Assembly (NCBI GenBank): GCA_948805675.1
Contig: CAQIBN010000002.1
Coordinates: 39,207-103,206, forward strand
DNA length: 64,000 nucleotides
Reading direction: 5' to 3'
Origin: an uncultured Clostridia bacterium
GTDB taxonomy: Bacteria > Bacillota > Clostridia > TANB77 > CAG-508
A program made the position numbers and the translations under genes. Shown here one piece after another: positions 20,200 to 24,694 of this stretch. The notes under the pieces are model-generated. The model did no database searches. It was not told the DNA's origin and saw nothing but the letters and a program-made list of their open reading frames with translations. The first letter of the stretch is position 1; each line of letters starts with the position of its first letter.

Positions 20200-21998
20200 T
20201 TATCCAAAAATTGCTTCAAATTCATCTCCATCAATTTTTTCTTTTTCCAAAAGAACCCCTGCAACTGCATGTAATTTATCTATATTAGCTTGTAAAATTT
20301 CTGCTGCTGCCCTATAGGCAAAATCTATTATTTTCTTTACTTCTTCATCTATAATTGCTGCTGTTTCTTCTGAATATTCTTTACTTTGAGTAAAATCTCT
20401 TCCTAAAAATACTTCTTCTTGATTTTGTCCAAGAGTAATAGTTCCTATTTTGTCACTCATTCCATATTTAGTAACCATATCTCTTGCAATTTTAGTAGCT
20501 CTTTCAATATCATTACTTGCACCTGTTGAAATATCATCTAATATTAACTTTTCTGCAACTCTTCCACCAAGTAACGAGATAATGTTTTCTTGCATTTCAG
20601 ATTTTGACATAAAAGATTTATCTTCTGTTGGTCTATACATAGTATATCCACCAGCCATTCCTCTTGGAACAATAGAAATTTGATGTACTGCATCTTGTGT
20701 AGGTAAGAATCTACTTACAACTGCATGACCTGCTTCATGATATGCAACTAATTTATTTTCTTTGTCACTTCTTACTCTTGTTCTCTTTTCTGGTCCCATT
20801 GTTACCTTAACCATTGCATCTTCAATTTCTTTCATCCCTATTTCTAATAAATCTCTTCTAGCAGAAAGAAGTGCTGCTTCATTTAATACATTTTCCAAAT
20901 CTGCTCCAGAAAATCCTGATGTATTTTTAGCAATTGTTCTTAAATCAACATCATCTGCTAATCTTTTCTTTCTACTATGGACTTCTAATATTTGCTCTCT
21001 TGCCTTTACATCTGGACTAGAAACTACTATTTGTCTATCAAATCTACCTGGTCTTAATAAAGCTCTATCTAATACATCTGGTCTATTTGTTGCAGCTAGT
21101 ACTATAACACCTTCATTAGCAGCAAATCCATCCATTTCCACTAATAATTGATTTAATGTTTGTTCTCTTTCATCATGTCCTCCACCAAGTCCTGCACCTC
21201 TTTGACGTCCAACTGCATCTATTTCGTCTATAAATATTATACAAGGAGCGTTTTTCTTAGCTTGTTCAAATAAATCTCTTACACGAGAAGCACCAACACC
21301 AACAAACATCTCAACAAAGTCAGAACCACTTATAATAAAAAATGGAACTCCAGCCTCTCCTGCAACTGCTTTTGCAAGAAGAGTTTTTCCTGTACCTGGA
21401 TGCCCGACAAGTAGAACACCTTTTGGTATTCTAGCTCCCATATCTGTAAACTTTTTAGGATTTTTTAAAAACTCTACAATTTCTTGTAATTCTTCTTTTT
21501 CTTCATCTACACCTGCAACATCATTAAAAGTAATTCTATTTTTCTCAATTGCATTTATTAATTTTGCCTTACTTTTTCCAAATGACATCGTTTTACTTCC
21601 ACCTTGGTTATTATTCATTAATAAAAACCAGAAGATAAAGAATATAATCAAAATTCCGAAAGGAGTTAATAAACTAAGTAAAACCATAAAAATTGATTCA
21701 GATTTTTCTGTTACTTTTATATTACCAGCCTTCATTGGTTCTTGCAAAGTATTCATTAAACTATCTATACTTGGTATATTTACTTCTTTGGTTATATTAT
21801 CATTTTTTAATTTCACATTTGCTGATTCACCGTCCGAGAATCTATCTCTATTTCTCTTACATCTCCAGATTCAATTTTTGCAACTAGTTCTGAATAAGCA
21901 AGTTTTGTATCACTATTACCTACTATTGAAGTTAATAATACAATAAATATAATACCTATAATTAGCCAAACAGCTAAAGTTTTTATACTATTTTTCAA
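20200..21998 (-). CDS. ftsH: ATP-dependent zinc metalloprotease FtsH, split by a frameshift in an A6 run near 21810
   Basis: N-terminal TM segment in ORF 21813-21998; AAA motifs GPPGTGKT and DEIDA; zinc site HEAGHA. Confidence 0.9.
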
Positions 21999-22065: not shown

Positions 22066-23055
22066 TCAAGCATTTTTAATAAAGAAAATCTTCTTATTTT
22101 TTACCAAAATTTTAATGCTTTTATTTGGAATTAGATATTTGTTACCAATATTATTTTCACATAACTTTATTATATCCTCTATATTAATTTTTTCTATTCC
22201 TTGTGAACTACCCAAAAGATTATTAATAGTATACAAAATTATTCTAGATTTTATTACTTTTTTTTGTAAATTAAATAATTTTAGATTAAGCACAATTTTA
22301 GTTTCATCATATTCTAATAATAATTGTTTGTATTCTTGTTTCATAACTTCATCAAAATAGTCGTTTTCCTGTTTTAAAAGTTCTGACATACGATTTATTG
22401 TTTCTATAATATTTGGATTAAAATTTTCTTTTAAATATGGTATTAATAGATTTCTAATCTTATTTCTTGTATAAATATTTTCTTCATTACTTTTGTCAAA
22501 TTTCGGATTTAAGTTTAATATATCACAATAATTTTCAATTTCATCTCTTTTACATTTAATAATTGGTCTTATTAAATCATTTTTTATTGGCTCTATACCT
22601 TTCAGTCCAGAACTTCCAGTTCCTCTTATTATATTCATTAAAACTGTTTCCGCATTATCATTTAAATTATGAGCAGTTGCAACTTTGTTTGAATTTGTTT
22701 TTTGTTTAATTTTTCTGAAAAAGTCATAACGAATTTTTCTACCAGTTTCTTCTGTTCCATGCTTACTTTGTTCAGATAATTTTATTACATCAACTCTTTT
22801 TACAAAACATTCTACTCCAATCTTTTTACAAAATTCTTGTACATATTCTGTTTCTAAATCTGCTTCTTCTCTAATCATGTGATTAATATGTGCCACAAAA
22901 ATTTCAATTTTTAAATCTTTTTTCAAATTATTTAATACATTTAGTAAACAAATAGAATCTGGTCCTCCAGACACTCCTATTACAATTTTATCTCCTGTTT
23001 CAATTAAGTTATATTTCCTTATTGTATTTAGTACCTTTTCTTCCAATTCAATCAA
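22066..23055 (-). CDS. tilS: tRNA(Ile)-lysidine synthetase TilS (TTG start, RBS ggagaaag)
   Basis: PP-loop SGGPDS in VIGVSGGPDSICLLN. Confidence 0.8.
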   Translation of the reverse strand: MIELEEKVLNTIRKYNLIETGDKIVIGVSGGPDSICLLNVLNNLKKDLKIEIFVAHINHMIREEADLETEYVQEFCKKIGVECFVKRVDVIKLSEQSKHGTEETGRKIRYDFFRKIKQKTNSNKVATAHNLNDNAETVLMNIIRGTGSSGLKGIEPIKNDLIRPIIKCKRDEIENYCDILNLNPKFDKSNEENIYTRNKIRNLLIPYLKENFNPNIIETINRMSELLKQENDYFDEVMKQEYKQLLLEYDETKIVLNLKLFNLQKKVIKSRIILYTINNLLGSSQGIEKINIEDIIKLCENNIGNKYLIPNKSIKILVKNKKIFFIKNA

Positions 23056-23070
23056 TTCTTTCTCCTTCTT

Positions 23071-23352
23071 CGAACATTGGGTCGAACATTGGGGACGGGG
23101 TTAAATGTTCACTTTTTCTATTATCTCATGAACACTAGGGACAGGGTTAAATACTAGACTTAAAGCCATTTAGAGCAAGAATCAATTAAGTTAATACATT
23201 CACTAAGATTTAACACAATATCGTCTTTTAGTAGATAAATACTAACATTCATCACTGTCCCCAGTGTTCATGACCTTTGTAATTTAAACGAACATTTAAC
23301 CCCGTCCCCAATGTTCGCTTCGCCATTTTCGCTTCGCCATTTTCGCTTCTCC
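23071..23352. repeat. nested inverted-repeat element (MITE-like), copy 1, followed by a tandem repeat of the cgccattttcgctt unit (about 2.5 units)
   Basis: outer IR GAACATTGGGGACGGGGTTAAATGTTCA ... TGAACATTTAACCCCGTCCCCAATGTTCG; inner IR TGAACACTAGGGACAGGGTT ... CACTGTCCCCAGTGTTCA; the second copy is at 41668-41955. Confidence 0.7.
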
Positions 23353-23362
23353 GTTTGTTCTT

Positions 23363-24694
23363 TTATTCTCTATACTTCTCTATATTAGCAAACTTTGTAT
23401 AATTTCCAAGCCATAATAATTCTACTGTTCCAGTTGAACCTGCTCTATGTTTTGCTATAATTACTTCTGCTACATTTTTCTTTTCAGATTCTTCATTATA
23501 ATAATCATCACGATATAAAAACATAACAATATCAGCATCTTGTTCTATAGCTCCAGATTCACGAAGGTCAGAAAGCATAGGCCTATGGTCTGGTCTTTGT
23601 TCTGGTGCACGAGATAATTGTGAAAGAGCAATTACTGGTACATTAATTTCTTTGGCAAGTATTTTCAAAGATCTACTAATTTCTGAAATTTCTTGTTCAC
23701 GGCTTCCACCTTTTTTACTGCTTCCTTGAACTAATTGCAAATAATCTATTACAACTAATCCTATATTCTTTTCTAGTTTCATCTTTCTACATTTTGCACG
23801 AATTTCCATAATAGAAATACCTGGTGTATCATCTATAAATATTTGTGATTCTGAAAGGTCACCAGATGCTAATGCAAGTTTTGCCCAGTCTTCGTCTTCT
23901 ATTTTACCAGTTCTTACCTTATTACTATCTACCATTGCTTCACTACATAAAATTCTGTTACCCATTTGCTCTTTAGACATCTCTAAACTAAATATAGCAA
24001 CTGGAACATTGGCTCTTACTGCCGCATTTGATGCAATATTTAATGCGAATGCAGATTTTCCCATAGCTGGTCTTGCTGCAACTAGTATTAAATCTGAATT
24101 ATGAAGTCCAGCTGTTTTATAATCTAAATCTGCAAATCCTGTTGGTACACCTGTTATATGTTGTTTTCTATTATATAACTCTTCTAATTGAGTAAAAGAT
24201 TCAACTAATATATCTTTCATAGAAGAATATCCTTTTTGATTCTTTCTTTGCATTACATTAAATATCTTTTTTTCTGCAACATCCATAATATCTTCTACTT
24301 CTTGTGTTTGGTCATAACCTAAGACTATAAGCTCATTTGCTGTTCTAATTAATGTTCTAAGCATAGATTTTTCTTCTACAATCTTTATATACTTTTCTAC
24401 ATTTGCAGTTGTTGGAACCTTTTCTGGAAGTTCTGCTAAATATTCTAAACCTCCAATTCCTTCAAATTTACCAAGTGTTACAAGTTCATCTTTAATAGTA
24501 ATAATATCTACTGGCTCTCCTCTATTATATAAATTCATTATTGCATCATATATAACTTTATTATCTTCTCTATAAAAATCTTCTGCTTTTAGTACTTCTA
24601 CTGCAGATATAACAGAATCTTTATCTGTAAGCATACTTCCTATAACAGCTTGCTCTGCTTCTATATCATGTGGTGGCACTTTACCTAAATCCAT
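23363..24694 (-). CDS. dnaB: replicative DNA helicase (DnaB family; DnaC in Bacillus nomenclature)
   Basis: 443 aa; N-terminal EAEQAVIGSML; Walker A GKSAFALN; RecA-like C-terminus. Confidence 0.9.
   Translation of the reverse strand: MDLGKVPPHDIEAEQAVIGSMLTDKDSVISAVEVLKAEDFYREDNKVIYDAIMNLYNRGEPVDIITIKDELVTLGKFEGIGGLEYLAELPEKVPTTANVEKYIKIVEEKSMLRTLIRTANELIVLGYDQTQEVEDIMDVAEKKIFNVMQRKNQKGYSSMKDILVESFTQLEELYNRKQHITGVPTGFADLDYKTAGLHNSDLILVAARPAMGKSAFALNIASNAAVRANVPVAIFSLEMSKEQMGNRILCSEAMVDSNKVRTGKIEDEDWAKLALASGDLSESQIFIDDTPGISIMEIRAKCRKMKLEKNIGLVVIDYLQLVQGSSKKGGSREQEISEISRSLKILAKEINVPVIALSQLSRAPEQRPDHRPMLSDLRESGAIEQDADIVMFLYRDDYYNEESEKKNVAEVIIAKHRAGSTGTVELLWLGNYTKFANIEKYRE

Follow-up and report, generated by a model that had tools for sequence, protein, structure and literature searches.

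In a 64-kb stretch of DNA from an uncultured Clostridia bacterium (contig CAQIBN010000002.1; the whole stretch is called the window below), two spacers between minus-strand housekeeping genes are filled by nested inverted repeats: element 1 at the dnaB-tilS locus and element 2 at the acpS-tatD locus. Are these structures small mobile elements, or leaders dedicated to the genes that they precede? An initial annotation had put forward both a non-autonomous mobile element similar to a miniature inverted-repeat transposable element (MITE) and a structured 5' leader. The comparisons reported here argue, with good confidence, that both loci are members of a non-autonomous family resembling repetitive extragenic palindromic (REP) sequences and their REPIN doublets. 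The cognate enzyme would be a single-copy, REP-type Y1 (HUH) transposase of the TIRYT, or TnpA_REP subclass 2.1, kind, with a C-terminal helix-turn-helix (HTH). They are a new case of a type of small mobile DNA already described, not regulators dedicated to tilS or tatD. Their newness is modest and lies in the host lineage, in the display of the conserved motif in a hairpin loop and in the locus-specific cores.

The repeat family and the associated Y1 transposase

Repeat and pattern searches bear out the description of two loci with nested inverted repeats. With up to three mismatches, GAACATTGGGGACGGGGTT occurs eight times in the window, always within 23084-23316 and 41688-41938, against no match in any of 100 dinucleotide shuffles (0 expected); GGGGACRGGG, with up to one mismatch, gives 9 matches against 0.3 expected. 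The layout is the same at both loci: an outer and an inner unit, an AT-rich core, then the inner and outer units inverted. Each arm comprises two direct units of about 28 nt, the outer one well conserved and the inner one a degenerate copy with GGGACAG. At locus 1 the outer arms (28 nt, 23083-23110 and 23290-23317) are 100% complementary and the inner arms (32 nt) 81%, so that the inner inverted repeats of the initial annotation are present but more degenerate than written; at locus 2, arms of 53-65 nt are 86-89% complementary. The elements range in size from 237 to 288 nt and are indeed G/C-rich islands (38% GC in a window of 25.9%). They enclose the unrelated AT-rich cores of about 90 nt that had been described (91 nt in element 1 and 96 nt in element 2; 20-25% GC, no mutual similarity). 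The two tandemly duplicated ends are likewise present, TCGAACATTGGG (12 nt) twice at 23070-23093 and a 36-nt unit twice (92%) at 41850-41921. A third duplicated end, absent from the earlier description, consists of a 14-nt unit repeated three times at 23311-23356. On the sense strand this unit reads GCGAAAATGGCGAA and is similar to the 14 nt with which the arm begins, GCGAACATTGGGGA.

The outer unit (27-29 nt) is a small hairpin with a 7-bp stem and a 13-nt loop in which GGGACGG is invariant. For a survey of stems, every GGGAC[AG]G in low-GC loci was collected and placed in an ungapped 27-column alignment. Outer units are almost always closed by a stem of 5-9 bp, and at least four stems occur with one loop: GAACATT/AATGTTC, TGCCA/TGGCA, TGGAA/TTCCA and TGGACAA/TTGTCCA. 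Compensatory changes across the four stem types are seen at all seven stem pairs, and paired cells amount to 90%, against 28-50% when the partner is slid. As DNA, a single outer unit folds weakly (-3.8 kcal/mol). A G-quadruplex was also considered as a family-wide feature (the arms read G4-AC-G4...G4-ACA-G3) and was dropped because the subfamilies with GGGGACGGTTC units lack the second G-run.

The same modules are found in relatives at unrelated intergenic sites, beside unrelated genes. An exact motif scan covered one genome per GTDB species, and a further scan covered metagenome contigs. Among low-GC genomes of the GTDB scan, the sole match was an uncultured gut Clostridium metagenome-assembled genome (MAG), UMGS2019, with four loci; the remaining matches were singles in high-GC genomes, in a number close to chance expectation. 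The metagenome scan returned many human-gut contigs of 25-30% GC, and one gut assembly (ORMR01, 3-4x) holds at least eight loci. In both scans the motif is restricted to low-GC contigs of gut Clostridia. The motif scan of viral contigs gave 0 matches and so gives no hint of a phage origin. Gene-less copies occur in the window and at no fewer than 15 other loci, and all copies seen are intergenic. A literature search found no paper describing this repeat, and a query with the repeat sequence gave irrelevant matches only.

The recurrent anatomy consists of an outer unit (C/T)GAACATTGGGGACGGGGTTAAATGTTC(A/G), about 35 nt further on an inner unit TGAACAyTrGGGACAGGG..., a core, and both units inverted; the arm consensus begins exactly at GAACA and stops after the inner unit. 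Other forms exist, namely solitary arms (contigs L002 and L015), a solitary unit (L033), a single pair (L012), a compact hairpin (L001) and compact doublets (L001, L072). Just outside about 10 of 25 arms, including arms that flank transposase genes, lie partial copies of the arm terminus: GAACATTGGG is found outside many arms, GGAAAAC is repeated six times in L073, and copies like that at 23070-23081 of the window are also seen in L015, L020, L036, L061, L062 and L074. Many arms have no such copy, and a target-site preference for TTGGG was rejected on this basis. Further hairpin subfamilies can be recognised (L007 1925-1965, L028 6840-6880, L066 2385-2480, L012 7185-7215, L055 3905-3935); type B, TTGCCATTAGGGACGGGGAATTTTGGCA, and type D, ATGGACAAAGGGACGGTTCTCTTGTCCAT, coexist with the GAACATT type in the same genomes. 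Many short-read contigs end inside repeat units (L052-L054 at their 3' ends, L056-L060 at their 5' ends), which suggests the breakage expected for multi-copy DNA. MAG assemblies are therefore fragmented and MAG copy counts are underestimates.

Nested arms of the same layout, outer and inner units followed by their inverted counterparts, also enclose a gene in a relative (L036, 1831-2589). Its 252-aa product matches Pfam Y1_Tnp with 39 bits (gathering score 23) over residues 14-124 and NCBIfam REP_Tyr_transpos (NF047646) with 62 bits (E 5e-17). Weak HTH_23 matches lie at its C-terminus (216-250), and HTH-type matches recur in many of its 26 homologs. All 26, once aligned, match both Y1_Tnp and REP_Tyr_transpos, and the latter scores above IS200 every time; H59, H61 and Y119 are invariant (H-x-H; the tyrosine in Y-I-H-N-N-P-V-K). 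Because a search of the PDB with the single transposase sequence gave nothing meaningful, profile and predicted structure were needed. The best match of the profile search is 4ER8, the E. coli TnpA_REP, which is also the best match of the AlphaFold model (pLDDT 86.4; E 6.5e-7, TM 0.72), above the IS608, ISDra2 and IS200 transposases.

The same units also flank homologs with 95%, 80% and 58% identity (the flanked genes are those of L036, L055, L061 and L074). Those at 95% and 80% always lie between minD and porG, and the 58% homolog is at another site; relatives carry just one copy of the transposase gene, in a syntenic position (minD, gene, porG). More distant homologs, at 45% and 40% identity, have their own flanking variants, in which GGGGACGG is retained: a 52-nt perfect palindrome in L072 and a group of GGAATTGGGGACGGTTC units in L073, where an additional outer-plus-inner doublet is found 5 kb from them. 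At the level of sequence and gene context, the repeat family is shown to be specifically associated with a RAYT-like Y1 enzyme (RAYT, REP-associated tyrosine transposase), whose TIRYT-type features are read on the genes of relatives, none from the window.

By analogy with IS200/IS605 elements and the RAYT/TnpA_REP paradigm, the units would fold when the DNA is single-stranded. A transposase whose gene lies at another place in the genome (in relatives, between minD and porG) would bind the folded units, and cut and rejoin one strand via its HUH/tyrosine site. Arms or whole elements could be moved or copied in this way without target-site duplication, and it is probable, on the same analogy, that the Y1 transposase mobilises the elements in trans. 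Target-site duplications were sought and none was found, at either locus or between filled and empty dnaB-tilS sites. The initial annotation had counted such a lack against mobility; that reasoning does not apply here because the associated enzyme belongs to the Y1/HUH REP-type class, in which the absence of target-site duplication is no ground to dismiss mobility.

Gain, loss and the nature of the cores

Comparison of dnaB-tilS spacers reveals filled and empty sites. The spacer measures 293 or 307 nt in the six assemblies of this species, a difference of one 14-nt repeat (ATTTTCGCTTCGCC, with three copies here and two in three other assemblies). In a lineage with 90% identical TilS it measures 272 nt and holds an orthologous element with a homologous core (that of L062) and decayed arms: outer complementarity is down to 16 nt and the inner arms are at 76%, without compensation. 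In a lineage with 88% identical TilS it is reduced to 20 nt (TAA-CCCAAAAGAGGAGAGAAACA-TTG), with no element. The spacer is 134 nt long in an 83% lineage, with a different, type-B-like inverted repeat, and 44-45 nt long in lineages at 66-69%. Outgroups favour an insertion that preceded the split between the window species and the 90% lineage. Similarly, element 2 has orthologs at the acpS-tatD site in L018 and L038, with homologous cores and different numbers of units, and a pflB-pflA site carries one unit in L033 and an inverted pair in L001.

These comparisons bear directly on the proposal that the nested stems are a dedicated cis-regulatory RNA leader controlling translation or stability of tilS and tatD. 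The minus-strand transcripts have predicted folds much more stable than those of shuffled sequences (-108.3 and -122.3 kcal/mol; z -9.0 and -11.1), with the nested stems foreseen by the initial annotation. Moreover, both elements end 0-5 nt from the Shine-Dalgarno of the downstream gene. This adjacency to the minus-strand tilS and tatD had been correctly noted, but the "same orientation" attached to it carries no information, because an inverted-repeat element reads G-rich 5' and C-rich 3' on either strand. A leader as the primary nature of the elements is nevertheless contradicted by the tilS gene of the 88% lineage, which has a 20-nt spacer and no element, and by the uncompensated decay of the arms in the 90% lineage. 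The modules recur around a transposase gene and next to unrelated genes, and the Shine-Dalgarno is unsequestered in the predicted folds. No Rfam family reaches threshold: at gathering scores the whole window gave nothing, and a permissive search of both loci gave only sub-threshold plant miRNA-precursor models, which are generic long hairpins. A dedicated leader therefore appears very improbable.

An influence on expression is another matter. The elements lie 0-6 nt from the upstream stop codon (dnaB, acpS), and a partial copy in element 2 even overlaps the acpS TGA. Since they adjoin both this stop and the downstream Shine-Dalgarno, they occupy the entire intercistronic spacer, and very stable RNA stems placed wall-to-wall between stops and ribosome-binding sites could therefore influence expression. 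If co-transcribed, the elements would form very stable nested stems with the Shine-Dalgarno unpaired, and might act as an incidental barrier, processing site or stabiliser. Effects on tilS and tatD expression are thus possible, but they would be a by-product and not the reason for the presence of the elements.

Each core was set against the others and against the interior of three elements that carry the transposase. Similarity was found only between orthologous loci, never between paralogous ones, and no core matched any of the three interiors. The cores being unique to each locus, the elements are therefore neither internally deleted gene-bearing copies nor REPINs with a shared spacer. This result weighs against the classical MITE, an internally deleted derivative of a DDE-transposase insertion sequence (IS) moved by cut-and-paste, with which terminal inverted repeats, a size of 237-288 nt, an intergenic location and multiple copies would agree. 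Origin by internal deletion was rejected, since only orthologous cores matched: paralogous copies share no interior and none resembles the interior of a transposase element. Single arms and single units occur alone (L002, L015, L033), and the one protein found encoded between such arms is a Y1/HUH enzyme. For what had been annotated as a MITE-like element, the mobile-element reading is supported in substance by modules at unrelated intergenic sites, a transposase gene in the same nested arms and an empty dnaB-tilS site in a close relative. The element is not a classical MITE, a reading now scarcely credible, because the enzyme is Y1/HUH and not DDE, target-site duplications are missing at both loci and in the filled-versus-empty comparison, and cores are not shared among copies. 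A 31-codon open reading frame (ORF) in the element 1 core was also rejected: it lacks a start codon, and the orthologous L062 copy does not keep the frame.

Inverted repeats that bracket an AT-rich segment of about 100 nt could also be those of an inverton, in which a recombinase would flip the core and switch tilS or tatD transcription on or off. In keeping with this, the element 2 core carries a sigma-70-like TGGATA-18-TATAAT (41794-41823) on the gene-sense (minus) strand, with the same spacing in L018 and L038; its -10 block falls within 20 nt that L038 shares without change and L018 with a single mismatch. It may be the tatD promoter, although this is suggestive only. The promoter scan lists two sigma-70-like sites in the element 2 core, a count not above shuffle expectation. 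The same scan found no promoter-like site in the element 1 core, and a terminator scan found no intrinsic terminator in either element. Against inversion, the element 1 core has one orientation in all six independent assemblies of the species and in the 90% lineage, and the three orthologous acpS-tatD cores are collinear, so that at the assembly level seven copies of element 1 and three of element 2 show no flip. Furthermore, the associated gene encodes a Y1 transposase and not an invertase, and essential housekeeping genes seem unlikely targets of phase variation. Inversion of the cores is accordingly a most unlikely origin of this arrangement.

The cores raise a more serious alternative, a variant of the preferred REP/REPIN-like explanation that differs only in the mobile unit. 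Two independent arm insertions, or a compact doublet such as those of L001 and L072, might have trapped native DNA, and the core would then be ordinary intergenic DNA, for example a local promoter. The locus-specific cores point this way, as does the positional conservation of the promoter-like site in the element 2 core. Solitary arms, solitary units and compact doublets exist (L002, L015, L033, L001, L072), which argues that arms can land independently, and the pflB-pflA site has one unit in one contig and an inverted pair in another. Conversely, the empty 20-nt dnaB-tilS site contains nothing like the 91-nt core, which under the insertion scenario argues that the core came with the arms. 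Arm insertion is a possibility to be kept in mind, clearly less probable than the REP/REPIN-like explanation of which it is a variant.

More tentatively still, and with little probability attached to it, the arms might be the working ends of a Y1 system unlike IS608 and classical RAYT/REP. The invariant GGGGACGG loop could be where the enzyme recognises or nicks the DNA, as Rep-type HUH enzymes do, whereas IS608 cleaves outside the hairpin; two-unit arms would carry an arbitrary cargo of about 100 nt, maybe including promoters like the conserved TGGATA-18-TATAAT of the acpS-tatD core. If so, this would be a small cassette or promoter carrier able to rewire operon-internal transcription of essential genes in gut Clostridia, and the partial terminal copies (GAACATTGGG, or the sixfold GGAAAAC of L073) would be footprints of the cleavage chemistry.

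Several points weigh against the interpretation of both loci as REP/REPIN-like elements served by a Y1 transposase. No transposase gene was detected by tblastn in the 64-kb window, and its presence in this species is suggested only by co-occurrence in one sample at similar coverage (L046 and L079, sample ERZ13410465, about 3x); the copy count for the species likewise comes from the window alone, with two loci. The NF047646 score of 62 bits is below the curated cut-off of 80. The units have no GTAG/CGTC tag of classical REPs and begin, in the arm alignment, with (C/T/A)GAACA. Some selection bias is possible in the covariation set because its sequences were picked by their loop motif. Locus-specific cores leave a single unit, an arm or the whole element as the replicating entity, whereas true REPINs or MITEs would share a core. 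Only outgroups indicate which way the dnaB-tilS indel went, a deletion in the 88% lineage being the alternative. Finally, to our knowledge, no TIRYT has been biochemically demonstrated to cleave its repeats.

Feature map and neighbouring genes

Both elements are embedded in minus-strand gene clusters identified with NCBIfam models: rplI, dnaB, element 1, tilS and ftsH at the first locus; acpS, element 2 and tatD at the second. The tilS start is a TTG at 23055 and the tatD start an ATG at 41647.

Features of elements 1 and 2 in the window, in order of position (., no strand assigned)
Feature	Position	Strand	Remarks
tilS Shine-Dalgarno AAGAAGGAG	23056-23070	-	adjoins the partial terminal copy of element 1
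Element 1, partial terminal copy TCGAACATTGGG	23070-23081	+	directly outside the outer unit; adjoins the tilS Shine-Dalgarno
Element 1, outer hairpin unit TCGAACATTGGGGACGGGGTTAAATGTTC	23082-23110	+	G-rich on +; 7-bp stem GAACATT/AATGTTC, 13-nt loop with GGGGACGG; DNA fold -3.8 kcal/mol
Element 1, inner unit ATGAACACTAGGGACAGGGTTAAATACTAG	23128-23157	+	degenerate copy
Element 1, AT-rich core	23158-23248	.	locus-specific; 91 nt, 25% GC; sole similar sequence is the orthologous L062 core
Element 1, inner unit TCATGAACACTGGGGACAGTGATGA	23249-23273	-	G-rich on minus
Element 1, outer hairpin unit GCGAACATTGGGGACGGGGTTAAATGTTCG	23289-23318	-	G-rich on minus; perfect 28-nt inverted repeat of 23083-23110
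Element 1, 14-nt tandem repeat ATTTTCGCTTCGCC	23311-23356	.	3 copies; repeats the arm terminus outwards in degenerate form; dnaB stop (23363-23365) 6 nt away
Element 2, two partial terminal copies TGAACATT, TGAACATTGGG	41668-41686	+	adjoin the tatD Shine-Dalgarno AGAGGAG (minus strand)
Element 2, outer hairpin unit TGAACATTGGGGACGGGGTTCAGTGTTCA	41687-41715	+	
Element 2, inner unit TGAACACTGGGGACAGGGTTGAGTATTCA	41723-41751	+	includes GGGGACAG, matching the published GGGGWSAS (PMC3733652)
Element 2, AT-rich core	41752-41847	.	locus-specific; 96 nt, 20% GC; homologous only to the L018 and L038 cores at the same acpS-tatD site
Element 2, inner unit ATGAACATTAGGGACAGGGGT	41848-41868	-	G-rich on minus
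Element 2, outer hairpin unit, two copies	41875-41940	-	41875-41904 and 41911-41940; from the 36-nt tandem duplication
Element 2, degenerate partial terminal copy GTGAACATTGTGCGA	41941-41955	-	minus-strand sequence; overlaps the acpS stop TGA (41952-41954)

The longest tatD ORF (40871-41752, minus strand) encodes 293 aa from a TTG start and crosses the C-rich arm of element 2. Both the Shine-Dalgarno and the family model support a start at ATG 41647, giving 258 aa. An exact look-up of the 258-aa TatD product found no record, and gene callers may have chosen another start. Besides breaking short-read MAG assemblies, such repeats create spurious ORF extensions, of which the 293-aa TTG-started tatD is an example.

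The neighbouring acpS (41952-42330, minus strand) is split by a frameshift near 42060-42075: one frame reads ...IEIKNDEE then RKAYFLYK*, and the C-terminal part, GRPTFYINKPEK...ISISHIKEYAIASVTILTK*, lies in a different frame. The gene is broken at the same place in the related contig L018 and intact in L038 (...NDENGRPTF...); the break could reflect genuine pseudogenisation, recoding or an error common to both sequences. FtsH is also found as two minus-strand ORFs, a 61-aa N-terminal FtsH_ext (21813-21998) and a 538-aa AAA/peptidase part (20200-21816). The split (56-61 aa plus 518 aa) is also called in the 90%, 88% and 83% TilS lineages, and a single 603-aa gene is present in the 66-69% lineages. 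A single ORF of 3673 aa occupies 44406-55427 on the minus strand.

Comparison with known systems

Classical MITEs such as Correia/NEMIS, RUP and ERIC are, like the present elements, small, intergenic, bounded by inverted repeats, co-transcribable and able to form long RNA hairpins. In contrast, they have target-site duplications, a conserved interior and DDE-type parents, none of which is found here. The IS200/IS605 family (IS608, ISDra2) offers other points in common: a Y1 HUH fold, hairpin-forming ends and no expected target-site duplication. Its hairpins are on the same strand, however, and its members are multi-copy and autonomous, whereas the present ends are inverted repeats, the associated gene occurs once, in a syntenic position, and its product resembles RAYT more closely than it does the IS200 TnpA.

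The resemblance is greater to REP/BIME with TnpA_REP in E. coli and to REPIN with RAYT in Pseudomonas (Nunvar 2010; Bertels & Rainey 2011, PMC3116915; Ton-Hoang 2012). In both cases short extragenic palindromic units, often in inverted pairs, lie in intercistronic operon spacers without target-site duplication, and the same units flank a single-copy, syntenic, vertically inherited Y1 transposase, for which 4ER8 is the best structural and profile match. The differences concern both partners. A short AT-rich stem with a long G-rich loop replaces the long GC-rich stem of REPs, and the inverted copies are separated by about 90-180 nt that differ from locus to locus, where REPINs have a short, conserved spacer. 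The enzyme has an extra HTH domain and falls below the NCBIfam RAYT cut-off, yet the RAYT model is the best-scoring one for all 26 homologs. Imperfect extragenic palindromes of 20-40 nt are thus shared with the classical REP/REPIN families; the GTAG tag, the shared spacer and the curated protein score are not.

The closest described class is TIRtron/TIRYT, in which RAYT-like enzymes are flanked by inverted repeats with GGGGWSAS and copies are single, dimeric or clustered (Di Nocera et al. 2013, PMC3733652), as exemplified by ORFs 1152 and 4509 of Stenotrophomonas maltophilia K279a. TIRYT has been equated with TnpA_REP subclass 2.1, with its C-terminal HTH_23/HTH_28/DnaA_C domain (Quentin et al. 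2018, PMC6006769), and RAYT Group 1 has been noted in Clostridia (Bertels et al. 2017). In the present family too, a Y1 RAYT-like enzyme longer than RAYTs ends in a C-terminal HTH, its gene is bounded by inverted repeats and not by GTAG REPs, and singles, dimers and clusters are dispersed. GGGGWSAS is matched exactly by GGGGACAG of the inner unit and at seven of eight positions by GGGGACGG of the outer unit. Three differences deserve mention. The host is an uncultured, low-GC gut Clostridia lineage, and the string "Clostridi" does not occur in the main text of PMC3733652. The outer repeat is a small hairpin whose loop carries the motif and whose stem covaries, whereas PMC6006769 reports no REP-like structures near subclass 2.1 genes. 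Lastly, the arms are two-unit modules around locus-specific cores.

REP/REPIN-RAYT biology has been worked out almost wholly in Proteobacteria. The present family extends it to uncultured, very low-GC gut Clostridia and to the poorly characterised, HTH-bearing TIRYT branch, for which it provides a concrete substrate hypothesis: a hairpin of 27 nt in which GGGGACGG forms an invariant loop and the stem covaries.

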